DNA from: an uncultured bacterium
GTDB lineage: Bacteria > Patescibacteriota > Minisyncoccia > UBA6257 > 2-01-FULL-56-20
Length of the DNA stretch: 64,000 bases
Reading direction: 5' to 3'
Assembly: GCA_963830935.1 (NCBI GenBank)
Contig: CAWHOC010000016.1
Coordinates: 13,852 to 77,851, forward strand
Each line of letters opens with the position of its first letter. Positions within the stretch are counted from its first letter, which is position 1. Under the pieces are notes generated by a model that saw only the letters and a list, made by a program, of their open reading frames with translations, ran no database searches and had not been told where the DNA came from. Below are positions 3,942 to 63,008 of the stretch, piece by piece. The position numbers and the translations under genes are program-made.

Positions 3942-4193
3942 TCATTACCATGCGCATAGCGAGGAATGGTTCCGAGGAGGGCATCAAAGTGTTCCTTATC
4001 GACGAGTAGTATATTGGGCATGGATATCAACCGAAATGAAACCGTGACAAACAGTCACGATTTGAAAATAATTGCCAAATAGAGAGATCAGTCGGTAACA
4101 ATTTGTAACCAACTGGAAGGAGGCGTTACAAAGTAACGGATTGAAAATGCCACAAATAGTCATTTTCTCGATCTTTTGGTATATAATCCTTCT

Positions 4194-21225: not shown

Positions 21226-21312
21226 GGATTGAGCAAAAGGACTATCCTTTTTTAACGGAAATGCCACGTAGGAACGTGACCGTTAAAAAAGGATAGTCCT
21301 TTTGCTCAATCC
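21226..21312. repeat. perfect 33-bp inverted repeat with a 21-nt loop (large hairpin/palindrome)
   Basis: Left arm ggattgagcaaaaggactatccttttttaacgg is the exact reverse complement of the right arm ccgttaaaaaaggatagtccttttgctcaatcc. Confidence 0.8.
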
Positions 21313-36320: not shown

Positions 36321-36815
36321 ATGATTTCAACCAAGGAATTGTTCTTGAAGGAGTTCGATCGGGAGATGGTGACGACCCGCAAAGTCTTGGAGCGCGTACC
36401 GTTCGACAAGTTCGATTGGGTCCCGCACGCGAAGTCCACGCCGCTTGGCCGGCTTGCAAATCACGTGGCGACGCTTCCGCGCTTCGTGCCGCACGTCATC
36501 GATGAAGATAAATTTATGATGACGCGCACGGGGCCGCTTGATGTGAAATCTACGGCGGACATCGTCGCCGCGTTCGACGACCTCGCCACAAAGGCGCGCA
36601 CGTCGCTCGCGGGAACAACGGACGAGCATCTCGCCGGACAGTGGGAAATGCTCTTCGGTGAGCAATCGTTCTTTAAAGGGCCGCGCGCCGAGGCCTATCA
36701 GTCGCTCTTTATGGACCATCTGATCCATCATCGCGCCCAGCTTGGCGTGTATCTCCGGCTGAACGATGTGCCCATTCCGGGTTCATATGGGCCGTCCGCG
36801 GACGAGCCAATGTAA
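36321..36815 (+). CDS. DinB/YfiT-like (DinB_2) protein
   Basis: His-rich pattern ...HVATLP...HLIHHRAQL. Confidence 0.5.
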   Translation: MISTKELFLKEFDREMVTTRKVLERVPFDKFDWVPHAKSTPLGRLANHVATLPRFVPHVIDEDKFMMTRTGPLDVKSTADIVAAFDDLATKARTSLAGTTDEHLAGQWEMLFGEQSFFKGPRAEAYQSLFMDHLIHHRAQLGVYLRLNDVPIPGSYGPSADEPM

Positions 36816-36825
36816 ATAAAAAAAC

Positions 36826-36880
36826 CGCCTGTTCGCCTCCAGGCAGATGACCGTTCGGCGAAGGGGTATTTTTTGCACGC
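36826..36880. repeat. family A repeat copy 1 (core CGCCTCCAGGCAGATGACCGTTCGGCG) just after the DinB-like gene
   Basis: Core recurs at 51407-51433 and diverged at 48904-48920; the reverse complement sits at 49080-49105. Confidence 0.6.
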
Positions 36881-36926: not shown

Positions 36927-37466
36927 TCACCCCACCAGGTGAGCTGGTCGAGCATTTGATCCGCGGTGGCATTTGCCGAAGAAGATCGGTCGTGCCATCG
37001 GCGTTTTTGGAAGCAGCCACGGGGTTACGATCATTGCCGCAGCACGCACGGTCGCCACATGGACCTCGGGGAATACCTGCCGGAGTTGTTCCACGGCACG
37101 CGCGCCGCCGACCGTTCCGTACGCCACGAATCCCACCACTTTCCTGTTCCACTCGGGTCCGACCCAATCGATCGCGTTCTTGAGGACGGCCGAAGTGCCG
37201 TGATTGTATTCGGGCGTGACGATGATAAAGGCGTCGCTCTCCGCGATCTTTGCCGTCCACTTTTGTACGGCCGGATCGGCGTACGGTTCTTTTTTGCTGG
37301 ACGGCGTCGCCGCCGCGTTGAAGAAGGGGAGCGGATAATCGCGGAGATCGAGAAGCTCGACGTCCAGCCCGGGTTTCGCCTTCGCTTTTTCCGTGATCCA
37401 CTTCGCCGGCTGTTCGCCGAATCGCCCTTCTCGCGTGCTTCCGAGGATGACTTTTATTTTTAACAT
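36927..37466 (-). CDS. NADPH-dependent FMN reductase-family flavoprotein
   Basis: MLKIKVILGSTREGRF...FIIVTPEYNHG pattern. Confidence 0.6.
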   Translation of the reverse strand: MLKIKVILGSTREGRFGEQPAKWITEKAKAKPGLDVELLDLRDYPLPFFNAAATPSSKKEPYADPAVQKWTAKIAESDAFIIVTPEYNHGTSAVLKNAIDWVGPEWNRKVVGFVAYGTVGGARAVEQLRQVFPEVHVATVRAAAMIVTPWLLPKTPMARPIFFGKCHRGSNARPAHLVG

Positions 37467-37470
37467 GGTT

Positions 37471-37767
37471 TTAATGTTTCTTTTTCTTTTGTTTTTGCAT
37501 ATCGCTGACTAAATTGTGGAGGAGTTTGAGCGTGTACTCCGTGTTCACCGCGTAGAACACCTCCTTGCCGCGCCGCTCGTCGATCACAAGGTCGCAGGCC
37601 TTGAGCGTCTTCAGGTGTTGCGACACGGCCGGTTGGGAAAGTTTGACGATGCGCGTAAGCTCGTTCACCGTCTTGCGGCCTTTGATCAACGCTTCCACGA
37701 TCCGGTACCGCGCGGCATTCCCGACCCCCTTGCCAAACTTATTTATCTCCTTGCACAGATCAGACAT
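37471..37767 (-). CDS. ArsR-family transcriptional regulator
   Basis: wHTH ...LTRIVKLSQPAVSQHLKTLKACDLV. Confidence 0.7.
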   Translation of the reverse strand: MSDLCKEINKFGKGVGNAARYRIVEALIKGRKTVNELTRIVKLSQPAVSQHLKTLKACDLVIDERRGKEVFYAVNTEYTLKLLHNLVSDMQKQKKKKH

Positions 37768-37802: not shown

Positions 37803-37911
37803 GGGCCGCTTGATGCCATTTCTCGGGTATGGCGTCGCGTTCTACTGAACGCGCGCTTCGGCTCTCGCCGCCTTCGCGGCTCCGAGACGCCCCTCGAAAC
37901 GGCATCTTCGC
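37803..37911. repeat. family B repeat copy 1 (core GGCTCTCGCCGCCTTCGCGGCTCCGAGAC) with imperfect ~24-bp terminal inverted repeats
   Basis: Core is identical to 55843-55871 and the reverse complement is related to 48855-48885. Flanks ggccgcttgatgccatttctcggg and cccctcgaaacggcatcttcgcggcc are inverted. Confidence 0.6.
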
Positions 37912-37923
37912 GGCCTAGTAAAA

Positions 37924-38205
37924 TTGAGATATAATAAAACGATGCCAGAAACACAATGCACCCACCGTGACCAGATCCGCGACGTCCATCCGAAGGACAT
38001 CACGGTGTGCGAGGAGTGTATAAAGACGGGGGACACATGGGTAAATCTGCGCATGTGCCTCACGTGCGGGCACGTCGGATGCTGTGATAGTTCCAAGAAC
38101 AAGCACGCGACGAAACATTTCAAGGCGACGGGCCATCCGATCATGAAATCGGTGTCGCCGGGCGAGGAATTCACGTGGTGCTATATCGATAAGGTCTATT
38201 TATAA
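37924..38205 (+). CDS. zinc-finger UBP-type (zf-UBP) domain protein
   Basis: C.H....C..C......W.CL.CG.V.C......HA..H.....HP pattern. Confidence 0.55.
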   Translation: MRYNKTMPETQCTHRDQIRDVHPKDITVCEECIKTGDTWVNLRMCLTCGHVGCCDSSKNKHATKHFKATGHPIMKSVSPGEEFTWCYIDKVYL

Positions 38206-46552: not shown

Positions 46553-48890
46553 TTATTCTTGATGCACCCGCGCGCGGAATTCTTCCACTTTTTTTCGTAA
46601 CGCTATATTTTTTTTGAACTGCGGATCCGTAGTGACGGCTTTGATCGCCGCTTCGCGCGAATGTTTGACGAGCTCCGGATCTTTGAGCGCTTCCATCGCG
46701 ACGTCGGGGAGTCCGGTCTGCACGTTGCCGAAGAATTGGCCCGGGCCGCGCAACGCAAGATCATGTTCGGCGAGCTCGAAACCATTTTTTGCCTCGAGAA
46801 TCGCTTTGAGGCGCGCGTTCGCGATGGCCGCTTGGGAGTCGGCCATTAAAAAACAGTATGACTGATACTCGCCGCGCCCGACGCGGCCCCGGAACTGATA
46901 GAGTTGGGCGAGGCCGAACCGGTCGGCACCTTCGATCATCATGATGGACGCGTTCGGCACGTCCACGCCAACCTCCACCACCGACGTGGCGACGAGAATG
47001 TCGAACTCCTTATCCTTAAAGCGGCGCATCACATCTTCTTTTTCTTTCGGCTTCATCTGGCCGTGGAGCATCGCGATGCGCAGGTCGGGAAAGATCTTCG
47101 TGGTGAGCTTTTCATATTCCTCTTTGACGGATTTCAGTTCCAGTTTTTTGACGAACGCGGCTTTGCCGCCGGGCACTTTCGTCACTTCCTCTTCCTCCGG
47201 CGCTTCGATGCGCGGGCAGATCACGAACGCCTGGCGCCCCTCTTTTATTTGCTCGCGAATAAAGTTGTATGTGGCGGTGCGCTTGAGCGGCGCCACGATC
47301 TCGGTTTTGATCTCCTTGCGCCCAACGGGCAGCTCCGTAATGAGCGAAAGGTCAAGGTCGCCGAACACGGAGAGCATGAGCGTGCGCGGGATCGGCGTTG
47401 CGGACATGCTGAGGAAGTGGGGGATGGGCGCGCGCGCCGTGCCATTCTTTGCCGCCGCCGTTGCCGTTGGCTCCGCCGTGCGCACCGCTCTTCCGCGCGT
47501 TCAGCTCCGCGCGCTGGCGCACGCCGAACCGGTGCTGTTCATCTATTATTACGAGCCCGAGCGAAGCGAACTCCATCGCTTTTTGGATGAGTGCGTGCGT
47601 GCCGAAAATGATGGACACTTCGCCCGCGGCAACTTTCCTATAAAATTCGGGCTTGGATATTTTTGACTCCAATTCCTTGCCGTAAAAAATATGAGCACTG
47701 CTGCCGGTGATGAGTCCGACGGCGGGTTGCGGGGTGCCGGTGCCATCATCACCTAGTGCGAGCGTGGTGAATAGTTTTCTCATTGTCTCGAAATGCTGCC
47801 GCGCCAGAATTTCAGTCGGCGCCATAAACGCGGTCTGGAGCCCGTTCTCCGCGGCGATCACCGCCGCAACCGCCGCAACGACGGTTTTGCCCGAGCCGAC
47901 GTCGCCCTGCAGGAGTCGGTTCATCGGTCGCGCTTTCTCGATATCTTTGATGATCTCCCAGAGCGATTGCTTCTGCGAATGCGTGAGCTCGAAGGGAAGC
48001 TTGGCGAGCATCGATTTCACGCGCTCGATGTCCGCCTTGATGACGGGCGCGGATTCCTGCGCGAGCTTCATCTTCTGCTGCATGTTCAAAATTTGCAAAA
48101 GGAACAGTTCCTCGAACGAGAACCGCGCGCGCGCGGCGGTGGCGTCCTCGATGTGGCGCGGGAAGTGGATGGAGTGGATCGCTTCGTTTAATTCCGGAAA
48201 TTGGAACTCCACTAAAATTTCCGCAGGGATCCATTCTTTCATCACCGGATTTTTATGGAAGAGCGATTGCGTGACGAAGCGGATGCCGCGCGAGGTGAGT
48301 CCGCGGGTCTCGGGATACACCGGCACGAGCCGCGCGGTGTGGCTCATCTCCTGTCCGCCGCGGTCGCCCGCGCGCTCGCGCAGGTGGATCATCTCATAGA
48401 CGGGATTGTTCAAATAAATTTCGCCTTCCTCCGACACGGAAGCTTTTCCGGCGAGGTTCACCGTGCGGCCGGTCTTCAGAACGTTCGCCACGTACGGCTG
48501 GTTGAACCACACCGCGCGGATGGATCCCGATTCGTCCGCGATCGTCGCTTCCACGATGCTCATCGCGCGGCGCCAGCTGCGTTTGCTTTGGATCTCCTCC
48601 ACGACACCCGTGATGGTGGCTTGTTGTCCGGGCTCAAGCTCGGCGATGGGATACACTTTTGTGAAATCCTCGTAGCGGGTGGGAAAGTGCCAGAGAAGAT
48701 CGCGAACGGTCTTGATGCCCATCTTCTCGAGACGGCGCAAAGCGGGAACTCGTGCTCCCACAACCTCGAAGAGCGGTGTGTCGGGCGCTATCTGAAGCAT
48801 TGATTTGCGAATAGTATAGCATAACGGGCAGAAGAAGAACACACATGCCTTTGAAAGGTGTCTCGGAAGCGCGAAGGCGCTGAGAGCCAA
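46553..48890 (-). CDS. recG: ATP-dependent DNA helicase RecG; one frame break ~47445
   Basis: LLQGDVGSGKTVVA, IIDEQHRFGV, then MSATPIPRTL and helicase C-terminal motifs in the other frame. Confidence 0.8.
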
Positions 48891-48935
48891 GGCGCGCGGC
48901 CAGCAGGTGACCGTTCGGCGAGAAGGATATTCTTT
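48843..48935. repeat. composite repeat: family B copy 2 (inverted orientation) fused to a family A-like segment, directly 3' of tRNA-Lys
   Basis: cacatgcctttgaaaggtgtctcggaagcgcgaaggcgctgagagccaagg is the reverse-complement homolog of 55806-55890, followed by caggtgaccgttcggcgagaagg. Confidence 0.55.
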
Positions 48936-49017: not shown

Positions 49018-49060
49018 GATATCAAAGATATTCTATGAAGTATGGAAAGAAAATGCAATC

Positions 49061-49123
49061 GGCAAAAGATATCCTCCTTGCCGAACGATCATCTGCCTGG
49101 AGGCGAGAGGGATATCTTTTGCC
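49061..49123. repeat. family A copy 3 (inverted orientation) flanked by 17-bp inverted repeats
   Basis: Arms ggcaaaagatatcctcc and gagggatatcttttgcc; core gccgaacgatcatctgcctggaggcg. Confidence 0.6.
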
Positions 49124-49129
49124 ATGAGC

Positions 49130-49657
49130 TTAGTACCACTCTTGATGTTTCAGCGCTGCCAACGCGATGATCGCCGCCGGGAGGTAATATTCCGTGCGGT
49201 CGATCGCGCCGTCGGTGAGGTGGCCGATCGCGCCGATGCCCTGCTTTGAATTCGTGCTGTTGAAAAACTTGTCGGCCGCGTGCCCGAGTTCCATGCCATC
49301 CTCAATATATTTTTTCAGTTGCTTGGGCAGATAAAATTGCGCGGTTGATGATTCCCCGATGAATCCACTCTGGTCGGTCACGAGGATCCATGCCCGTTCG
49401 AACATGCGATCGTTCTCGCGGCAGAGTCCGCCCTCCTGGCTTATATAAAAATCCGCATCGGGATGATGCTCCATGATATAGCGCAGGCGGTTCTCCGCGC
49501 CTCTCCGCGTTTCCTCTTCCATCGGTTGCTCCGCCACTCCCGACTTGGATTTTATTCCGACGAAGCGGAATTGTTCATCGGGAAAGATCGCGGCAAACGC
49601 CCGTTTGGCCACCTCGATCTTCACCGGATTTTCCGACGCGACGATGACGGATCTCAT
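49130..49657 (-). CDS. inosine/xanthosine triphosphatase (YjjX/DUF84 family)
   Basis: IVASENPVK...TRRGAENR...ISQEGG pattern. Confidence 0.55.
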   Translation of the reverse strand: MRSVIVASENPVKIEVAKRAFAAIFPDEQFRFVGIKSKSGVAEQPMEEETRRGAENRLRYIMEHHPDADFYISQEGGLCRENDRMFERAWILVTDQSGFIGESSTAQFYLPKQLKKYIEDGMELGHAADKFFNSTNSKQGIGAIGHLTDGAIDRTEYYLPAAIIALAALKHQEWY

Positions 49658-49838
49658 CCGCTCATTATATCATCTAAAAAAATAAATAAATAAAATAATC
49701 TCTCCCGCCAGGAGTTTCACGTCGCTCGCCGTTGCGGCTCCCTCCTTGAGAACCCACGGTTCTCAAGGCTCTCCTCCACGGAAGGGGCAGCCTGCCCCTT
49801 CCGACCCATCCCCCCGTTCAACTTCTGCCGGAGAATAG

Positions 49839-49939
49839 GTAGAAAAATAAAGGAGAGGTATTGAGCGAGTGGACGTGCCCCACGGGACTTCCTTCGGTCG
49901 CTTACGTCGGAGCGAAATACCTCTCCTTTGTTTTTCTAC
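49839..49939. repeat. structured repeat, family C copy 2: same ~53-nt core as 18582-18634, closed by a different 24-bp helix, abutting the tRNA-Arg 3' end
   Basis: Arms gtagaaaaataaaggagaggtatt and aatacctctcctttgtttttctac; core GAGCGAGTGGACGTGCCCCACGGGACTTCCTTCGGTCGCTTACGTCGGAGCGA. Confidence 0.6.
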
Positions 49940-49942
49940 TTG

Positions 49943-50014
49943 TGCCCCCGCCAGGAGTTGAACCCAGACTTCATGGTTCGAAGCCATGCGTGATATCCGT
50001 TTCACTACGAGGGC
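49943..50014 (-). tRNA. tRNA-Arg (UCG)
   Basis: Hand-folded: acceptor gccctcg/cgggggc, anticodon stem catgg/ccatg with loop cTTCGaa, T-loop ttcaact. Confidence 0.65.
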
Positions 50015-50785: not shown

Positions 50786-51394
50786 ATGAAAAAAGGGTTT
50801 ACCCTGATAGAACTATTAGTGGTCATCGCGATCATCGCCATTTTGGCCGTGGTGGTTGTCCTTACGCTGAATCCCGCAGAGCTTTTGCGTCAGGCGAGGG
50901 ATTCCAACCGCATCTCCGACTTCGCGACGCTGAAGAGCGCGCTCGGATTGTACTCGGAGGACGTGAACACGACAACGCCGATGTATGGGAACACGACCAC
51001 GATCTACCTCTACGGCACCTCGGGCATGACGACCACGACTACAAGTTCGTACGAAGGTACCGCCTCCACGTCATACGGGTTCACTGCCACGACGTCCGTT
51101 ATCAATTACGCGCTCGTCTCTTCGAGCACGAGCAGGGTGGTCACTGGTGCCGGTTGGATCCCGATTAACTTCAGCGCCATCAGCTCAGGAGCCCCGATCA
51201 GCGCATTGCCGGTGGACCCGACCAATTCCAAAAGCAACATCTATCTGTATGCGGCAACATCAACAGCCTACAAGCTCGCCACAAAGATGGAGAGTGCCAA
51301 ATACGGATACAGCGGCACGGGTCAGGATGTTGTTTCAACCGACGGCGGAAACAACACCAACACGTACGAACAGGGTTCGAACATGGCGCTATAA
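50786..51394 (+). CDS. type IV pilin-like protein (prepilin N-terminal methylation motif), Thr/Ser-rich
   Basis: MKKGFTLIELLVVIAIIAILAVVVVLTLNP; paralog of 281-1582. Confidence 0.7.
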   Translation: MKKGFTLIELLVVIAIIAILAVVVVLTLNPAELLRQARDSNRISDFATLKSALGLYSEDVNTTTPMYGNTTTIYLYGTSGMTTTTTSSYEGTASTSYGFTATTSVINYALVSSSTSRVVTGAGWIPINFSAISSGAPISALPVDPTNSKSNIYLYAATSTAYKLATKMESAKYGYSGTGQDVVSTDGGNNTNTYEQGSNMAL

Positions 51395-51406
51395 AAACAG
51401 GCACGC

Positions 51407-51433
51407 TCGCCTCCAGGCAGATGACCGTTCGGC
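51407..51433. repeat. family A copy 4, inside a terminator-like hairpin immediately 3' of tRNA-Ala
   Basis: cgcctccaggcagatgaccgttcggcg flanked by caggcacgc ... gcgtgcgtttttgttt. Confidence 0.6.
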
Positions 51434-51451
51434 GTGCGTTTTTGTTTGTGG

Positions 51452-51522
51452 TGGACCCGAGGGGAATCGAACCCCTATCTATCGGATGCAAACCGATTGC
51501 TCTACCACTAAGCTACGGGCCC
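51452..51522 (-). tRNA. tRNA-Ala (UGC)
   Basis: Hand-folded: gggcccgTAgcttagtggtagagc, anticodon stem atcgg/ccgat with loop tTTGCat, T-arm agggg-ttcgatt-cccct. Confidence 0.7.
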
Positions 51523-51706
51523 GAATGAATATGCCAGCATATTCATTTCTGAGCGAGGGACAGGGCTTTCGGCGGCAAATATCTCTATAGTTATAACGTG
51601 CGCCGGGAAAAATGAAAAGTGCATAGCGTCTGTCTGCTCAAACGATTTATTAAAAAATCATGAAAAAGTTTTTGACTTTATTTTTTTGGCGCCATAAAAT
51701 TAGTGC

Positions 51707-53019: not shown

Positions 53020-53442
53020 ATGCAAGATCCGGCATTCCCATCTGAGGGCGAAAAAATAAAAAAAGAAGCACGTGAGATTTACAACAAGATTGAGTATGTT
53101 TGGTCATCTGCGTTGGGCGATCGCGTCTTTTTCAATAGTACCGGATTTCGGCACCTCGTTTGGAAGGGGAAAGAATATCGATCGTCTTACCAACAGCACA
53201 AACGTTTAGCGCTGTTGCCATTTGCGCCCAATATAATCGCCAACGCGAAAATTCCTAACAGTCGGCGAATTGAGGTGAAATATATAAAAATAAAATGGCG
53301 TCACGAAAAGAAGGCCGCCTTATCCAACGTAACTTATTGGGCGTTCAAAGGCGAAGCAGACGGAAAGCCAGTGCGTGTTATTGTAAGGCAGATAGGCAAC
53401 GGACATAAGCATTTTTTCAGCATATTTCAGGATCATAAATAA
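53020..53442 (+). CDS. low-GC hypothetical protein inserted between rpsG and fusA
   Basis: Intact 140-aa ORF, GC ~38%, followed by the terminator gactcc-gtca-ggagtc plus a T-run at ~53445-53475. Confidence 0.5.
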   Translation: MQDPAFPSEGEKIKKEAREIYNKIEYVWSSALGDRVFFNSTGFRHLVWKGKEYRSSYQQHKRLALLPFAPNIIANAKIPNSRRIEVKYIKIKWRHEKKAALSNVTYWAFKGEADGKPVRVIVRQIGNGHKHFFSIFQDHK

Positions 53443-53675: not shown

Positions 53676-55772
<2,097 letters not shown>

Positions 55773-55777
<5 letters not shown>

Positions 55778-55901
55778 GAAGCGCTAAAACAGCACAGGGC
55801 ACATGCTTTTGAAAGGACGGCGTTCCGGTCTGCTGACCGGCCGCCTTGGCTCTCGCCGCCTTCGCGGCTCCGAGACACCTTTCAAAAGCATGTGCCTTGT
55901 G
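55773..55901. repeat. family B copy 3: 34-bp near-perfect terminal inverted repeats (one G-U position) enclosing a 61-nt core; overlaps the fusA stop codon
   Basis: gctaaaacagcacagggcacatgcttttgaaagg ... cctttcaaaagcatgtgccttgtgctgttttagc; the loop contains ggctctcgccgccttcgcggctccgagac. Confidence 0.7.
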
Positions 55902-56020
55902 CTGTTTTAGCGACCCGTTCCAGAATTATCTAGGCAACATTGTCCTTATCCCGGAATGATTAAGAAAAGATTAAAAGAGACTTGGAGTATGGGTAAATTA
56001 GATATATGATTTAGTGACAA

Positions 56021-57514
56021 ATGGGAAAAACAACATCTATAACTGGACAGTTGAATACGAAAATCGACGAAAAAAGGAAGAAGGTTTCTAGGGAAACTTT
56101 ACTTAACGACCCAGCTTTATTAGATGCCCAAGTTGCTATCAAGCTTCTTGAAAAAAAATACGAGAAGAAGCTTGAGAAAAATTATGAACTCAGCAGATCT
56201 CTTGTTAGTTTTCAAGCTAATAAAACTGAGCCAGGATATCGATGGTTTAAATTTAAAGAAGGATATTCTTCGTCTCTCGTAAAATATACACTTAAAAAAC
56301 TTGGCATTAATCCAAAGAAATCGATTGATCCCTTCGCTGGTAGCGGAACGACATTATTTGTCACTGCTGAATTAGGCGCTGAAGGAACAGGTATCGAGCT
56401 TTTACCAATAAGCTCAGAAATTATAGCGGTTAGAAAATATTTATCTAGTAATAAAAAACATAAAGCTTTAAAGATTATTGATGAATGGTTAGAAAAAAAA
56501 CCTTGGGAAAAACATAAGCATAAAATAACTCTTAATCAGTTAAGAATTACCAGTGGGGCTTTTCCGGATTCTAATAAAGACCTTTTGGAGCGTTATATGG
56601 CGCTTCTTAATTCGGTTGGCGATCCTGAAGTAAAACGAGTTTTAAGATTTGCCCTCCTCTGTATTTTGGAAGAAATTAGCTATACCCGAAAAGATGGACA
56701 GTATTTGAGGTGGGATAAAAGATCTGGCAGAAAGCAGGGAGCACAACCTTTTGATAAGGGAGAAATTAAAAACTTTAGTCAGGCCGTGGTTACAAAATTA
56801 GCCACAATTAAAAATGATTTAATGGGAGATACTTTAAGTAATAATCTTTTTCCTATTAGACTTGCAAAAGCCAATACATCAAACGTTAATGTTTTGGATG
56901 GTTCATGTTTAGAGATTCTTCCGAAACTCCAATCTAATTCGCATGATTTTTTAATGACCTCGCCACCTTATTGTAATCGTTACGATTATACGAGGACGTA
57001 TGCTCTTGAATTAGCCCTTTTAGGGATAGACGAAGCAGGGATTCGCGATTTAAGACAAAAAATGCTTTCAGCTACTGTTGAAAATCGAGATAAGCCAGAA
57101 TTAAATCTCCTTTTCCCTAAGACATTTAAAAGCGCGACGAAAGCATTTGATCAACAAATAGCTTTACAGAAGATTCTTTACTACCTAGATGTATTAAGGC
57201 AAAAGAAAGAATTAAATAACCCTGGCATTTTTCGAATGGTAAAAAATTACTTTTTTGAAATGTCTTTAGTAATATTTGAATCTGCTCGTATTCTAAAGAA
57301 AGGATCGTATTTTATTATGGTAAATGATAACGTACGATATGCCGGAATAAATATTCCAGTAGATCTTATATTATCTGATTTTGCAGAAAAAGCAGGCTTC
57401 GGAGTAAAAAAAATATGGGTTTTACCTAGGGGCAAGGGGAATAGCAGCCAACAAATGGGAAGTTATGGACGAGAAGAAATGAGAAAGTGTGTCTATATTT
57501 GGCAAAAGTTATAA
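56021..57514 (+). CDS. DNA amino-methyltransferase (N6-A or N4-C), low GC, intact
   Basis: Motif I DPFAGSGTT and motif IV TSPPY; GC ~33%. Confidence 0.65.
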   Translation: MGKTTSITGQLNTKIDEKRKKVSRETLLNDPALLDAQVAIKLLEKKYEKKLEKNYELSRSLVSFQANKTEPGYRWFKFKEGYSSSLVKYTLKKLGINPKKSIDPFAGSGTTLFVTAELGAEGTGIELLPISSEIIAVRKYLSSNKKHKALKIIDEWLEKKPWEKHKHKITLNQLRITSGAFPDSNKDLLERYMALLNSVGDPEVKRVLRFALLCILEEISYTRKDGQYLRWDKRSGRKQGAQPFDKGEIKNFSQAVVTKLATIKNDLMGDTLSNNLFPIRLAKANTSNVNVLDGSCLEILPKLQSNSHDFLMTSPPYCNRYDYTRTYALELALLGIDEAGIRDLRQKMLSATVENRDKPELNLLFPKTFKSATKAFDQQIALQKILYYLDVLRQKKELNNPGIFRMVKNYFFEMSLVIFESARILKKGSYFIMVNDNVRYAGINIPVDLILSDFAEKAGFGVKKIWVLPRGKGNSSQQMGSYGREEMRKCVYIWQKL

Positions 57515-58390
57515 ACCAACTAACCATTGAGCCAAATCCTCAACCTGTTCTTTGGTCCCTAAATTCGCGGCGAATGCTAAATTACTATTTTTCAGATCAG
57601 CATAAATTTCTTTCGCCATTTCTATTTCTATTGCAGCTCCCACGAAAAATAGAGAGGGTTTATTGAAACCTTTTCGAATACGTGCAAGTGCTCCACTCGC
57701 CGTCTTTCAATGTTCATCAGCTCCAGCGGGATCTATCCCACCTTTAAGCTCCCCGAAAGCAAGATAATTTTTAGGATCAGCAAACGCTTCTTTAGTCGAA
57801 TGTTTCGAAGTATCTAAAAGAATAACATCAATGTTCTTTTTAATAAGTTTAAGCTTATAATCAAAAACCAAATGTCGTTTTGGCCAGCTTATGCTAGTTA
57901 TCTTACCCGACTTTTTTCTAAAAATCTCAGGAGATATTTTCTTTAAAGCTAAGGCCGCTATAAGTGAGTCAGTTAATTTTAAAGCGGCAGAAGCACCTAT
58001 AAAATTTCTCATAGATCCTCCTAGGGTATCTCCCTTAGTTAAAAGATAGCGATGCACTAATTGCTCTCTAGCAGTGATTACACCGCTTTTAAAAATCTTT
58101 CTTAGGACGACTTTAAGTGAATCTTCGATATCTTTTTCCTTTAAGTGACTTGATGCCTTATCCGAAAAACCTGCCGCGGCTAAAACCTCTTTTTGGAAGG
58201 ACTTTAACTTGGACAATTGGTTAATATTATTAACTTTTTCAAGGGCGGTTCTAAATTCAACAGCCCTTACCAAATAAGGTGTTGATTTATCTGTTTTTGT
58301 AAGGGCTTGGAAAAGAAATCCGGCCTTTATGGCTTCAGGCGAAGTCACTAAATCTTGATATCCCTTAATATGCTTAGGTTTCATGGCCAA
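57512..58390 (-). CDS. probable type II restriction endonuclease (partner of the adjacent m5C MTase); one frame break ~57706; its stop abuts the MTase stop (ttaTAA)
   Basis: Position between the two MTases; ELKGGIDPAGADEH segment; low GC; the C-terminal ~65 aa continue in another frame. Confidence 0.35.
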
Positions 58391-58555
58391 GAGGAGTCGA
58401 TATTACTTAATAAATTCAACAACTGTATCAAAATTTAATCATTTTTTAATGAATTGTGCAAATTTTTCAACCAGAGTATATTTAAATAGGATTTAATATA
58501 TGGACACCTTAATTTCGCAAAGAGCAGTCCTACAAATATCTCGCAAATATTATCA

Positions 58556-59793
58556 ATGGCGCCTCAACCCAAGGCTCTTGACCTTTTTGCCGGGACGGGA
58601 GGATTCTCAGAAGGGTTCATTCGTGCAGGTTATGAAATGGTTGGACATGTGGAAATGGACCAAAAAGCTTGCGAAACTCTTAAGACACGAATGGTTTATC
58701 ATGCATTAATAAAAAAAGGGGAAATAGGAGAGTATATAAAATACATACTTGGACAAACAACCTTAGATGAATTGATCCAAAAATATGGTCTTCAAAAGGA
58801 GAGAGAATTCAGTTATGTGTAATAAAATTGATAAACATAGCTATCCGGAAATTATAAAAAATATAAAAAATCGTCTAAATGGACAAAAAATAGATATTAT
58901 TATAGGTGGACCGCCATGCCAAGCATATTCTTATATTGGTCGTGCACGCGATAAAAACAATATGAAATGGGATCATCGTAAGTTTTTGTATAGATATTAC
59001 GTCGAATTTTTAAAAGAATTTAAACCAAAAATATTTGTTTTCGAAAATGTTCCCGGCTTGGTAAGTTCTGGAAGTGGAATTTATCTTAAGCAAATGCGAA
59101 AGTTAATGAAGGAGGCGGGGTATGAGACTAAATATGAAATCCTAGATGCGGCGAATTTTGGAGTACCGCAACATCGCAAGAGGGTGATACTTGTAGGTTG
59201 GAATAAAAAATCAACATTAAAGGATTATCCGAACTTCTCAGAAATTGATCGCGATTACATTGTTAAGGATTTCCTTTTTGAATTACCTAAAATTTCTTCC
59301 GGAAAGGGCCAACAGATTAAAAAGTTTTTAAGTAAGAATGTTCTTTTGGAGAATTTGGGTATTGTAAATCCCGAATTCAGTTTTTTAATGAACCACATAG
59401 CACGCCCAAATATATCGAGAGATCTCGAAATTTATAGAAGGGCGGTGGTTTCAAAAAAAGAAGGAGAGAATATAAAATATAATACTTTACCTCAAAAATT
59501 AAAAACTCATAAAAATGAGACTAGCTTTCTCGATAGATTTAAAGTTGTCGACTTCAAGGCTAAGGGTTCGCACACCGTTGTTGCTCATATAGCAAAAGAT
59601 GGACATTTTTACATTCATCCCGATATAAAACAAAATAGATCCTTAACTGTTCGTGAAGACGGCCCGATTACAGACCTTTCCGGATGACTATAAATTTGAA
59701 GGAGAGAGAACCGCTCAATTTAAACAGATTTGGAAATGCTGTCCCACCAATGTTATCTTTCGTCATCGCAAAAGAATTAAGAAGCTACCTATA
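58556..59793 (+). CDS. dcm: DNA (cytosine-5)-methyltransferase; three frame breaks (~58800, ~59655, ~59737)
   Basis: Motif I LDLFAGTGG, IV GGPPCQAYS, VI ENV, VIII QHRKRV, IX LTVRE..ARLQTFPDDY, X QIGNAVPP (the last two in shifted frames). Confidence 0.7.
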
Positions 59794-59801
59794 ATCTCCA
59801 T

Positions 59802-61188
59802 GGATGGAAAAGAAGAAAAATTTAAGCTTAGACCAAGAGCTAGAATCGTAAAGACTTTCGGAGAAGAACTAATCAGTAATGATTATGTAGCAATTATCGA
59901 GTTAATTAAAAACTCCTATGATGCTGATGCAAAATTGGTCGAAGTAATATTCGAAAATCCACTTAGTGAAGAATCGGGGAAAATAATTATTCGTGATAAT
60001 GGAATCGGAATGTCTCCGGAAGATGTTAAGGGTGGATGGATGGAGCCAGCTTCTATAATGAAGCTGGCAAAAAAGGAAGAGTAAATCGAGGCACATCTTC
60101 TGGGCGAGAAAGGTATTGGAAGATTTTCGGCAGCAAAACTTGCCTCGAATCTTACCCTTATTACACGAATAGGAGAGTTTTCCAGAGGTTGCTGCTCAAT
60201 TTCATTGGGCTGATTTTTATGATCCAGAAAAATATCTGGAATGAAATAGAGGGTGATTGGAAAACTAACGAAATAGGAGAGATTAAAGAATCTGGAACGA
60301 TTTTAATCTTGGAAAAATTAAATTCCAAATGAAATAGAATCTTCGCTTTAAAGAATTAAAGACTTATCTCTCACGTCTTTGGTAAATCCACTTAGGCCCA
60401 CAAAAGATTTTCAGATAATTTTAAATCTTCCAGATGAGTTTAAGGATTATATAGGAGTTGTAGGTCCTCCGGATTCGCTTCAAAAGCCAGATTATGTTAT
60501 TCGAGGAAGTTTGAATAAGGAGGCCATATTAACCGCGGAATATCAAAGTAAGAGGCATATAGAGAAACGCATCATGTACGACGATGTTCTCAGGTTGGAT
60601 TCTGGGAATCTACCATTATGCGGTCCAATTTCTTTTGAGTTTCGTATTTGGGATAGGGACAATCTCAAAGATTTAGCAATAGAATTAGGTACTGGAATCA
60701 GCGATATAAGAAAAGATTTAAATGAAATTGCTGGAATTAGCATATTTCGGGACGGTTTTCGTATTTCTCCTTATTCTTGGACCTCGATAATGATTGGCTT
60801 CGCCTTGATATAAGAAAGAAGGGTGCAGAACCCTACTTTGAGAATGAGTAATAATCAAATTGTGGGAGATGTCCTGATTACTAGAGCTGATAATTCAGAA
60901 CTAAAAGATCAAACCAATCGCGAAGGAATTGTTGAGTCTGATGCATTTAGCGATCTTAGAGAGGTGGTTGATTTTATTTTAGATCTCGTAGAAGATGCAA
61001 GATATAAAGAGAGACGAGAATTAGATACTAATCCAGATCGTAAATATAGACTTTTTCGTGATATAGATCTTGCTTCTGTCCGAGCCGTTATACAAAAAAA
61101 ATTACCCGATGATAAAGAGACGGAGGCTGCTCTTTTAGAAAAGAGAAAGAAATTAAAGATAGAGTTGAAGAATTCAGAGACTTTATAG
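59802..61188 (+). pseudogene. MORC/MutL-like GHKL ATPase (HATPase_c_3-type), at least 5 frame breaks
   Basis: N-box IIELIKNSYDADA; G1 IIRDNGIGMS; G2 GEKGIGRFSAAKL in a second frame; the rest (GTILILEK..., ISIFRDGFRISPYS, DWLRLDIRKKGAEPYF...) is scattered over all three frames. Confidence 0.5.
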
Positions 61189-61861
61189 TTAGATATCGCC
61201 GCCTTTCGCACTCTTGGGTCAGTTGTAGATATTATTTTGCATGATGCGGGGGCTGCTTTATCGAGAGTTAATAATGGAACAAAGGTTATCGAAAAAGAGT
61301 TAAAAAAATAAAAGATCCTTCCGAGCCACGCATTAAAGAATGTTGCAGCTGTTTCGGTGGGTCAACAGTTACTTGGAGAGCTTTTTAAGCGCCTCGAACC
61401 ATTTGGAGGAAGGGGAAGCGACAAAAGATATTTTAGTAACGAAAGCAATTGGGGAAGTATTTAAATTTTGAGCGATCTGATAAAAAACCTTTCTATAAAA
61501 ATTATACTTTCAGAAAAAGCTGAAGAAATATTTCTGAGTCGGATTTCAAGATGATCTTTCTCAATCTTATTGATAATAGCCTTTATTGGTTAAAAAAAGT
61601 TCCTGAATCGGAAAGAATAATAGAGGTTCTTTTAAAGAAGGGTGAAAACAATTTAGAGATCATTTTTAGCGATAGCGGTCCGGGAATATCATTCGAAGAT
61701 GCGCCTTTCATTTTTGATCCTTATTACACAAAAAAACCTGGGGTATTGGTTTGGGCCTTACCATCGTTGGAGAATTTGTCGCAGAAGCTGAAGGATCTTT
61801 CGATCTTGTCAAAAGGGGCCCCTAAAAGGTGCCACTTTTAGAATAAAGTTTCCTTTAAATT
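61189..61861 (+). pseudogene. cytoplasmic histidine kinase (HisKA + HATPase_c, no sensor domain), at least 4 frame breaks
   Basis: H-box-like ILHDAGAAL; N-box NLIDNSLYW; G1 IFSDSGPGI; G2 GGIGLGL in a shifted frame; C-terminal LKGATFRIKFPL. Confidence 0.45.
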
Positions 61862-63008
61862 GACTTTGATGGAAAAGATTAAAGTCCTAATTGTCTATTA
61901 CTATATTATTATTGCTGGACAGCTTTTGCAATTATTGAATGGAGCAGAAATAGCAGATTGTAAGATTTTAGCAGAAGCTATTGGAGATTTTGATCGAGCA
62001 AAGGAACTTTTGGCTATAGGAAATTATGACGTTGTTATTTTGGACGTTTATAGAGGGGGGCCCTCAGAAGAAAATACGGATCTTGCAGGAAGAGAAGTTC
62101 TTGAAACAATTAAAACTACCGCGCCATTGGCAGTTATCTTCTATACCGGTCTCACGAGTCATGTTCAAGAATTAGCTTCTGATGTTGTAAGGGTGTTATC
62201 AAAAACAGGGGGCAATATTGAAAATGAGTTAAAACTCCTTTTAGAAACAGGAATTCCTCTAATGAGACAAAAAATTACAGGACACGTAAATGAAATCCTA
62301 AAGGATTATTATTGGGAGTTCATTGATAAAAACTCTAGCTTAATTCAAGATTCTCAAAATAAAGCTCTTTCGGAATATCTTCTCTTGAGGCGATTAGCGG
62401 CTACTCTTACAAGAGATGGAGTCCATAAAATATTTGGCGACGCCATTTCGTCTGACAAAATCCATCCTTTAGAATTTTATATTTTTCCCCCTATAGATGA
62501 GGCAGAGTTCGAAACGGGAGATATTCTTGAGAAGGATGGTGTCGGCTCCTTCCACGTGGTTTTGACCCCATCATGTGATTTTGCAAATCATAAAGCAAGT
62601 TTTATCTTATTGGTAAATGGAACTCTGCTAAAAGAAACTGACGAATATATTTCCTACGCCGCTGATAGAAGTAACGTTGCCGTGAAAGAGACTCTAAGTA
62701 GGGTCATAGGTTCTAGGCGCGGTGACCGATATTTTTTTCTTCCTCGGAGCGAACTTATGGCTATGCCTGACCTAGTTTTAGATTTTCAGAATTTAACAAA
62801 TCACCAACTTGAAGGATTTAGCGGCTATAAAAAAATTGGAAGAATAGATGATCCATTTGTGCAGGATATGCTCGCTACATTTATAAGAAATCAAAATCGT
62901 CCTGGATCTCCGGATCTGGATGTCACATATATTTTGGACTATATAAATAAAGATATAGACCCTCCAACGCAAGAAACAATTCCACAGGCACATGATAGAA
63001 AAGAATAA
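61860..63008 (+). CDS. atypical receiver domain (acidic pair replaced by Y-Y; phospho-acceptor Asp, Thr and Lys retained) fused to an uncharacterised ~250-aa C-terminal domain; intact
   Basis: KVLIVYYYIII...DVVILDV...VIFYTGLTS...VVRVLSK; I recognise no motif in the C-terminal domain. Confidence 0.45.
   Translation: MTLMEKIKVLIVYYYIIIAGQLLQLLNGAEIADCKILAEAIGDFDRAKELLAIGNYDVVILDVYRGGPSEENTDLAGREVLETIKTTAPLAVIFYTGLTSHVQELASDVVRVLSKTGGNIENELKLLLETGIPLMRQKITGHVNEILKDYYWEFIDKNSSLIQDSQNKALSEYLLLRRLAATLTRDGVHKIFGDAISSDKIHPLEFYIFPPIDEAEFETGDILEKDGVGSFHVVLTPSCDFANHKASFILLVNGTLLKETDEYISYAADRSNVAVKETLSRVIGSRRGDRYFFLPRSELMAMPDLVLDFQNLTNHQLEGFSGYKKIGRIDDPFVQDMLATFIRNQNRPGSPDLDVTYILDYINKDIDPPTQETIPQAHDRKE

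Follow-up and report, generated by a model that had tools for sequence, protein, structure and literature searches.

Candidate lineage-specific hairpin elements with conserved tips and locus-specific stems in soil and peat Paceibacteria

Introduction

What kind of element is the long inverted repeat into which the fusA gene of an uncultured Paceibacterium runs at its 3' end? The locus lies in a 64,000-nucleotide stretch of contig CAWHOC010000016.1 (hereafter the window, meaning the whole stretch analyzed). A sequence-only reading had assigned the repeat to one of two dispersed families, which were taken either for elements like repetitive extragenic palindromes (REPs) or miniature inverted-repeat transposable elements (MITEs) co-opted as terminators, or for a mobile element specific to tRNA flanks. 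The host belongs to the candidate phyla radiation (CPR), or Patescibacteria, whose members are uncultured and have genomes of about 0.8 Mb; to our knowledge, almost nothing is known of how these bacteria end or process their transcripts. By comparing the window with related genome and metagenome loci (designated by L numbers, such as L002, L021, and L107), we found that the fusA repeat is part of a real, structured, lineage-specific repeat system of uncommon architecture, in which a conserved tip is carried on a private stem. To judge from the sequences, it includes the families A, B, and C, intergenic hairpins that occur in soil and peat Paceibacteria and carry a conserved tip on a locus-specific stem. 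A search of the literature on palindromic or terminator repeats of CPR bacteria found no description of these elements.

The hairpin at the fusA 3' end

The element that raised the question was delimited as follows.

55782..55912, + strand: family-B hairpin at the fusA 3' end, identified by inverted-repeat search and folding; 114.5 bits with the covariance model described below

Its arms (55782-55816 and 55878-55912) are 35 nt each, are 97% complementary, and enclose a spacer of 61 nt. Together they form the P1 stem, on which sits a Y-shaped tip (55817-55877) made of two hairpins, P2 (~55820-55845) and P3 (55851-55875). The last codon of fusA, whose product is EF-G by Pfam, and its TAA stop (55785-55787) fall inside the 5' arm, and the outer arms contain A4 and T4 tracts, the 3' end reading GTGCTG-TTTT. 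Folded as a single strand, the element has a minimum free energy of -93.1 kcal/mol, against -46 in shuffled sequences (z -12.4). The inverted repeat of 34 bp overlapping the fusA stop, as first described at 55773-55901, was thus correctly recognized in kind, with the stop codon in its arm, and is here relocated to 55782-55912 and lengthened to 35 bp; its description as a terminal repeat did not hold, since the stem is locus specific, with the same sequence in no other copy, and is no transposon end.

The window has syntenic relatives in L021, L022, L026, and L027, at 80-89% identity. A family-B element is found at the orthologous fusA 3' end in four genomes (the window, L021, L022, and L030). 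Two versions of the fusA end occur (CGCTAA and AGATAA), each with a 3' arm complementary to its stop-codon region; L030 has kept the older TTAGCG arm despite a changed gene end. The fusA element appears to be a vertically inherited copy of family B.

Several features of the surrounding locus were also recorded. The fusA gene (53676-55787) is broken into at least three frames, with open reading frames (ORFs) at 53676-54164, 54022-54918, and 54530-55726 and the last ~20 codons in another; an additional T at 55694, missing in three relatives, is one cause, and the breaks are either indel errors of long-read assembly or the marks of a pseudogene. Between rpsG and fusA in the str operon lies a gene with an LPD3 (large polyvalent protein-associated) domain (53020-53442), which is also present in L107, a strain 98% identical to the window. 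About 25 nt past the hairpin, GC content falls from ~57% to ~35% (~55935-64000); the genes of this block are of the restriction-modification/defense kind, namely an N6/N4 methylase, a BsoBI-type endonuclease, a C5 methylase, a MORC-like ATPase, and a NOV_C protein. The usual place of tuf after fusA is taken by this acquired island.

Family B: a branched tip with covarying stems

The B core, GGCTCTCGCCGCCTTCGCGGCTCCGAGAC, occurs exactly at 37860-37888(+) and 55848-55876(+), where 100 shuffles gave an expectation of 0. A degenerate version of the pattern adds 48860-48888(-), in which GCCGC/GCGGC has become AGCGC/GCGCT by two compensatory changes. The further B-type hairpins of the window are the following.

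37804..37915, + strand: family-B hairpin between a divergent ArsR-family gene and a zf-UBP gene; 87.4 bits
48842..48930, - strand: degenerate A/B chimera 3' of tRNA-Lys; 40.5 bits

The first, flanked by the ArsR-family gene (37471-37767, -) and the zf-UBP gene (37942-38205, +), carries the same tip as the fusA copy on an entirely different P1, without A or T tracts. In the chimera, a B-type P3 (48860-48888) is combined with an inverted A-type core (48904-48919 on the + strand) in place of P2, and the 5' arm is orthologous to the 5' arm of an A-type terminator in L048.

For a census, the degenerate pattern GGCTCTC-N5-CTTC-N5-TCCGAGAC was scanned in one genome per species and returned 36 loci; with 19 fixed bases and a database of 596 Gb, ~4 chance matches are expected. 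Metagenome-assembled genomes of CPR bacteria (Paceibacterota/Parcubacteria/Minisyncoccia) from soil and peat account for 33 of the 36, one being labelled Saccharibacteria; 'Candidatus Paceibacterota' corresponds to the NCBI phylum Minisyncoccota in a taxonomy look-up. The remaining 3, in Acidobacteriota, were set aside as chance because they lack common flanks and that many chance matches are expected. Genomes of ~0.7-0.9 Mb contain 6-8 exact copies each.

A plain MAFFT alignment of 35 copies resolves B into a three-way junction of a variable P1 stem and the covarying hairpins P2 and P3. The tip is nearly constant in length (61-62 nt). Inner P1 is semiconserved (TTTGAAAGG/CCTTTCAAA or CGGGG/CCCCG) and the outer arms are different everywhere; only the innermost ~9-16 bp of the arms are similar among copies, with conservation decaying outward. 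Over the 35 proposed pairs, 92.6% of alignment cells are paired and 23 pairs show double changes, a result that 0 of 500 shuffles equaled, and controls with slid partners reached only 37-52% (at most 56% over both B alignments). A covariance model built from this alignment added 12 more-diverged copies. The resulting 47-copy alignment, which is fitted to the model and hence biased toward the proposed structure, has 93.6% of cells paired and compensatory changes in 26 of the 35 pairs. The constant parts of B are unpaired: the P2 loop YUGCUG, the P3 loop CUUC/CUGC, and a 3-nt UCC bulge. Diverged copies found by the model, outside the search pattern, have kept loops and bulge with all stems changed.

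Family B thus shows, with good support, the covariation by which structured noncoding RNA motifs are recognized. Constant loops and bulge on covarying stems would fit either a protein-bound RNA or a hairpin recognized as single-stranded DNA. P3 was also considered as a K-turn or as group II domain V and rejected: the positions flanking the bulge are Watson-Crick paired, an AGC triad is missing, and the loop does not have the GNRA form.

Family A: terminator-like hairpins

The second family has its core exactly at 36834-36860(+) and 51408-51434(+), with 2 mismatches at 49079-49105(-) and as a diverged half at 48904-48919(+), the last being the insert of the chimera described above. Its hairpins in the window are as follows.

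36818..36875, + strand: predicted family-A terminator hairpin between convergent genes; core 36834-36860
49057..49123, - strand: predicted family-A terminator hairpin; core 49079-49105, arms 49061-49082 and 49102-49123, fold z -4 to -5
51393..51447, + strand: predicted family-A terminator hairpin; core 51408-51434

The first lies between a DinB-like gene (36321-36815) and an FMN reductase gene (36927-37466, -) and has orthologues with different stems in L075 and L097. The second follows an NTPase (DUF84) gene (49130-49657, -) and is 5' of tRNA-Lys. The third follows a type IV pilin-like gene (50786-51394) and is convergent with tRNA-Ala (51449-51522, -); L107 lacks the pilin gene together with the A hairpin (687 nt). 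The A and B cores were confirmed where the sequence-only reading had seen them, with coordinates off by 1-5 nt and no occurrence expected by chance, and it had correctly placed copies after fusA and the DinB-like gene, 3' of tRNA-Lys and tRNA-Ala, and 5' of tRNA-Lys.

Scanning metagenomes with the 20-nt A core returned 70 loci, from peat and soil. In 69 of the 70, the conserved GCCU-CCAGGCAGAUGACCGUUCGG-C comprises a 19-nt loop and its closing pairs, (C)GCC/GGC(G), at the tip of a hairpin with the order A-tract, variable stem, T-tract, the stem being site specific. GCCT is invariant in 65 distinct copies though it lies outside the search pattern. Outward from it follow TTC/GAA at 60-95% and then ~6 variable GC-rich pairs, and an A-tract at -14..-24 has its mirror image in a T-tract at +13..+24 (65-80% T over +13..+20). 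The arms have a median of 21 bp and a maximum of 31 bp, and in 6 of 12 tRNA-adjacent copies they extend 1-8 nt into the 3' end of the tRNA. Diverged copies were almost entirely lacking from 770 kb scanned by Hamming distance; in the one clear case, the closing pairs are flipped (GGC/GCC) and GGCAGAUGA is kept.

The hairpins are strongly oriented: ORF calls gave 50 sense copies versus 7 (22 versus 3 in one-sided contexts), and an independent composition test gave 28 sense versus 6. This orientation tracks transcription and not replication, because the minus-strand copy of the window follows a minus-strand gene despite a GC skew that is positive throughout. The predicted anatomy of A is clearly that of a bidirectional intrinsic terminator, with an invariant 19-nt loop. 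A hammerhead-like reading of A made by eye (CAGAUGA-CCGUUCGG-CGAA) was discarded, as U4 is replaced by A, stem II is 2 bp long, and the GAA falls within the variable stem.

Family C, mosaics, and tRNA-linked modules

Two families had been proposed at the outset; at least three were found, with mosaics between them. The third is represented in the window by two hairpins, one of which is followed by a further structured module.

18562..18658, + strand: family-C hairpin with 20-bp arms and a 57-nt conserved tip, between divergent ORFs
49827..49951, + strand: second family-C hairpin, directly 3' of tRNA-Arg (49942-50014, -), identified by inverted-repeat search
49700..49826, - strand: X' module after the C hairpin, with a multibranched fold, identified by sequence comparison and folding

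The C tip at 18562-18658 reads GAGCGAGTGGACGT..CCCACGGGACTTCC..GGTCGCT.ACGTCGGAGCGA. The C tip has CGTTCTCCCACGGGACT..GTCGC in common with B copies carrying an insert in P2: in five B copies (L003, L017, L019, L023, and L026), the P2 arm has incorporated part of the C tip, which makes them B/C mosaics.

The outer arm of the second C hairpin overlaps the tRNA-Arg 3' end. The adjoining X' module has as its 5' end an inverted copy of the tRNA-Arg T-arm and as its 3' end a 13-nt direct repeat of the 3' part of the tRNA (AACTCCTGGCGGG; 49704-49716 versus 49947-49959), and in the fold of X the inverted T-arm copy pairs with the direct repeat. The same layout of tRNA, hairpin, X, and direct repeat (13-19 nt of the tRNA 3' end) recurs in L002, L006, L016, and L027. 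Searches against the covariance models of Rfam 15, both at gathering thresholds and at E ≤ 10, matched no A, B, C, or X sequence.

In L002, L016, L027, and the window, 13-19 nt of a tRNA 3' end are repeated directly ~140-250 nt farther downstream. These repeats, together with the two tandem hairpin-plus-X units of L016, recall the debris of integrase att sites at tRNA genes, and such an origin would explain the tRNA clustering. We regard it as very improbable. Each module also holds an inverted copy of the T-arm of the same tRNA, which nested palindrome growth predicts instead; the combination of inverted copy and direct repeat is what two successive palindrome-building events would produce, the second inverting the copy made by the first. 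Besides, no integrase gene was seen among the ORFs examined nearby, the majority of A and B copies lie away from tRNAs, and a search of viral contigs for the A and B cores returned no copy of either.

Placement, inheritance, and turnover

The proposed clustering at tRNA genes and operon ends holds in part. Copies are enriched at gene and tRNA ends, tRNA-adjacent ones making up ~1/5-1/4 of the total; the majority lie elsewhere, and the copy at 37860 is not at an operon end because it sits between divergent genes. A mobile element specific to tRNA flanks does not agree with this distribution, in which most copies are away from tRNAs and some are in divergent promoter regions (ArsR/zf-UBP; 5' of rpsA). 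A MITE-like nature is likewise contradicted: the arms differ at every locus, and direct repeats at the palindrome boundaries, as would mark target-site duplications, equal the displaced control (A, n = 57; B, n = 28). The broader proposal of dispersed, structured, REP-like intergenic repeats is borne out, with conserved structure and strong covariation.

Many copies are inherited in place. Family A occupies at least 10 orthologous sites, where the arms are just 73-78% identical and the upstream sequence is 82% identical; neutrally evolving A cores would rarely both stay exact, even given the ascertainment. In strains 98-100% identical to the window, compared for recent gain, loss, or flips, the elements are unchanged. 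Turnover is evident among more distant relatives. A plain terminator follows tRNA-Glu in the window and a B element in L027, L006, and L016; tRNA-Lys and tRNA-Arg of L021 lack the hairpins that they have in the window; and the whole B hairpin at 37804-37915 is absent from the orthologous place in L026. In a synteny block shared by L008, L046, and L088, two of the genomes have an A hairpin that is precisely missing from the remaining one; a diverged B occurs in one genome, is truncated in another, and is lacking in the last. A common outer stem (GCGCACCATAAGAAA/TTTCTTATGGTGCGC) behind tRNA-Ile ends in an A tip in L088 and in a B tip in L008. The B tip of L005 has been flipped in place relative to L035 and L020, with which its flanks are collinear.

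Turnover of this kind raises the possibility of selfish, nonautonomous mobile DNA, in which the tips would be recognition hairpins for an enzyme acting in trans (a REP/RAYT-like or IS200/IS605-like single-strand HUH transposase, or a tip-homing activity) and any terminator role would be incidental, with no benefit to the host. Presence and absence among ~80-85%-identical syntenic genomes, the truncated remnant, the A-for-B tip swap, and the mosaics with C speak for it, as do the "exact or absent" behavior of A, with hardly any diverged copies, and the purely Watson-Crick stems; hairpin-recognizing transposases also demand conserved unpaired bases and covarying stems. We nevertheless judge this explanation unlikely. 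No target-site duplication accompanies the copies, and a partial survey of ORFs in the window and near the loci found no transposase, integrase, or related insertion sequence. Moreover, the elements show long orthologous retention at fusA, rpsA, DinB, and tRNA sites, remain unchanged among near-identical strains, and, in the case of A, have a strong sense orientation that follows transcription and not replication.

How the stems may arise

At a site with filled and empty alleles, the sequence of the outer 3' arm (TGGGCTATGTTATT) repeats the upstream AATAACAYAGCCCA in inverted form; the empty allele has the upstream sequence without the inverted copy. This pattern would fit stem growth by template switching during replication. 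Template switching creates perfect stems in one event, fixes mismatches, extends arms, and inverts spacers (PMC8794818, PMC5941160, PMC8604942). The same arm homogenization, arm extension, and spacer inversion are seen here; those papers describe a mutational process, not a family of repeats with conserved spacers.

The tips themselves seem to have been copied between hairpins together with variable lengths of inner stem. This is suggested by the decay of arm similarity away from the tip, by P3 variants that fall into just two or three discrete types common to several loci and genomes, and by the hybrid P3 carried by L030.

The A stems contain 1278 Watson-Crick pairs against 28 isolated mismatches (G.U type, 8; A.C type, 11), and the B stems have 18 mismatches of G.U type against 31 of A.C type. 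Because G.U is no commoner than A.C, and selection on a single RNA strand would tolerate G.U, we infer that the stems behave as DNA palindromes or must fold on both strands. As a guide to which strand is used, these wobble counts were uninformative.

Proposed function of the elements

The account that we favor, with somewhat better than even confidence, is one of conserved-tip hairpins with a terminator or 3'-cap role, template-switched stems, and tips read by a factor. A transcribed element would end in a very stable 3' hairpin. In A, and in the fusA copy of B with its A4...T4 flanks, this hairpin would terminate transcription in both directions and cap the RNA 3' end. Replication template switching would make stems, perfect them, extend them (into the upstream gene end), and occasionally flip them, one arm being copied from the other. 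As cassettes, the tips would pass from one hairpin to another through ectopic template switching or through gene conversion, taking along a variable length of inner stem, and would be retained because they are read by something, which for A is most likely a protein on the sense-strand RNA. For A, a role at the RNA level, in termination or 3'-end protection, appears to be the best reading in light of terminator anatomy, position, and strand bias, and the invariant loop would imply a sequence-specific reader. For the fusA copy, a similar role is plausible, given an A4/T4-flanked 35-bp stem directly after the stop.

The earlier suggestion that the elements were co-opted as terminators accordingly applies to some of them. 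A GC-rich stem followed by a U-tract is found in A, with 50 of 57 copies behind a co-directional gene or tRNA, and in the fusA copy; B in general lacks this anatomy. Both A and the fusA copy resemble known bidirectional intrinsic terminators in that a GC-rich stem lying directly past a stop codon or tRNA end is bracketed symmetrically by an A-tract and a T-tract. Canonical terminators have compact loops of 3-8 nt without conserved sequence on stems of 5-14 bp, whereas the tips here are a 19-nt loop in A and a 61-nt three-way junction in B, on perfect arms of 21-35 bp.

A number of observations weigh against the favored account. A T-tract is present in only ~5-9 of 36 B copies (about a quarter), the fusA copies included, and a simple intrinsic-terminator scan calls none of these A or B hairpins, whose tips, as just noted, are atypical for intrinsic terminators. 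The orientation of B relative to neighboring genes is 24:9 by ORF length, a method so error prone that L010 and L015 proved misassigned once rpsA was mapped, and 12:14 by composition. In five genomes, a B copy is situated ~40 nt upstream of rpsA, oriented alike each time and always antisense to the gene. The absence of G.U enrichment argues against selection on the stems as single-stranded RNA, and the identity of the A cores is partly an artifact of exact-match ascertainment. The mechanism does not cover the first arrival of a tip at a naive site. The role of the tips is the weak point of the account.

Several of the same observations bear on another reading, in which the elements would be DNA-level protein-binding or structural sites, comparable to the gyrase and integration host factor sites of REPs or to uptake sequences, with the tip read as DNA in an extruded hairpin or in the duplex. 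It would accommodate B in promoter regions as well as at gene ends, the mixed orientation of B, stems that are perfect on both strands without a preference for G.U, and the clustering of copies near highly expressed genes (fusA, rpsA, and tRNAs). A symmetric role of this kind leaves unexplained the orientation bias of A and that of tRNA-adjacent B copies, all 7 of which are in sense (7/7, at 5 independent sites); the density of 3-4 per 64 kb is far below that of known uptake sequences, and there is no known candidate binding protein. We consider it distinctly improbable. Candidate tRNA- or tmRNA-like 3' ends seen upstream of B in L011, L032, L024, and L033 were confirmed by neither ARAGORN nor Rfam.

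Within the favored account of conserved tips on template-switched stems, a more specific proposal can be made, which we offer only as a tentative one. The tips may be "apex cassettes" (27 nt in A, ~62-95 nt in B, ~55 nt in C) that spread without a transposase, via ectopic template switching, and are kept by a reader factor specific to Paceibacteria. Such a reader could be, for example, a termination or 3'-end-processing protein that recognizes the YUGCUG and CUUC loops and UCC bulge of B and the GGCAGAUGA loop of A.

Other observations on the window and related loci

Next to the A hairpin at 51393-51447, tRNA-Ala is inverted relative to the related genome L021 (window, 51449-51577; L021, 3074-3145; L107, 1800-1881), and L107 lacks a 51-nt segment that carries the palindrome GAATGAATATGC..GCATATTCATTC 5' of tRNA-Ala. 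A perfect 33-bp palindrome at 21226-21312 has a 21-nt spacer with a small hairpin (CACGT-AGGA-ACGTG) and no A, B, or C tip. There are tRNA-like genes with anticodons left undetermined by ARAGORN at 15626-15699 of the window, 4500-4572 of L020, and 2262-2336 of L035. The one in the window scores 37 bits as an Rfam tRNA, those in L020 and L035 give no match at the gathering threshold, and in the latter two loci a B copy lies 83-86 nt upstream. In many genes, GATATAAT-type -10 boxes end just 5-7 nt before the start codon (window, 37925-37944 and 49657-49675; L026, 4880-4897 and 5358-5377; L010, ~4092-4110), a placement that suggests widespread leaderless mRNAs in the lineage.

Contigs frequently end within A or B elements (L006, L015, L037, L062, L064, L080, and L095). 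L110, an ENA scaffold of 657 nt, links a fusA 3' end that is 86% identical to that of the window to the ArsR locus via a B copy, and is probably an assembly chimera at the repeat.

Relation to known systems and significance

REPs and the related bacterial interspersed mosaic elements (BIMEs) of enterobacteria and pseudomonads, which are linked to RAYT transposases, are short, structured, dispersed extragenic palindromes situated mostly at gene 3' ends or between convergent genes and arranged as mosaics. They can act as transcript 3' stabilizers or terminators and as protein-binding sites. The elements described here are like them in being short, structured, dispersed extragenic palindromes at gene ends in mosaic combinations. 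In REPs, however, the stem sequence is conserved and shared, and copies are paired as inverted REPs, whereas here conservation lies in the loop or branched tip and each locus has its own stem of 20-35 bp; the hosts, among those known for REP/BIME, are Proteobacteria, and those here are CPR bacteria.

The Correia/NEMIS elements, MITEs of Neisseria, are intergenic repeats of ~100-150 nt bounded by inverted repeats, and can supply terminators and processing sites. The likeness is in size, inverted-repeat boundaries, and intergenic location; MITEs have terminal inverted repeats common to all copies and target-site duplications, and the present elements have neither. Inverted pairs of DNA uptake sequences or uptake signal sequences embed a short, species-specific conserved sequence in terminator hairpins, and thus share with our elements a conserved short sequence inside such a hairpin. 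Their motif forms the stem and occurs in both orientations, whereas the conserved loop here is single copy and strand biased, at a density ~20-fold lower. The double-hairpin elements and GC clusters of fungal mitochondria are small, mobile-looking, intergenic two-hairpin units near tRNA and rRNA gene ends. They share with B the two adjacent hairpins near tRNA ends, but differ in host and sequence and are not placed on the tip of a long locus-specific stem. The system is thus closest to REP/BIME-type elements and bidirectional terminators, yet departs from both MITEs and REPs in the features that define them.

The elements matter in several ways. The terminators with an invariant loop and the Y-shaped motif, which Rfam lacks, offer a concrete way to find the factors involved and would allow better annotation of operons and 3' ends. 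The elements would also be an unusually clean natural case of template switching building, perfecting, extending, and flipping stems, including the copying of tRNA 3' ends and of a stop codon into the opposite arm. In a practical sense, such repeats break or mis-join metagenome assemblies. If the tips are indeed cassettes kept by a dedicated reader, they would be terminators assisted by a factor, or tags of RNA ends, in bacteria whose RNA-processing machinery is minimal.

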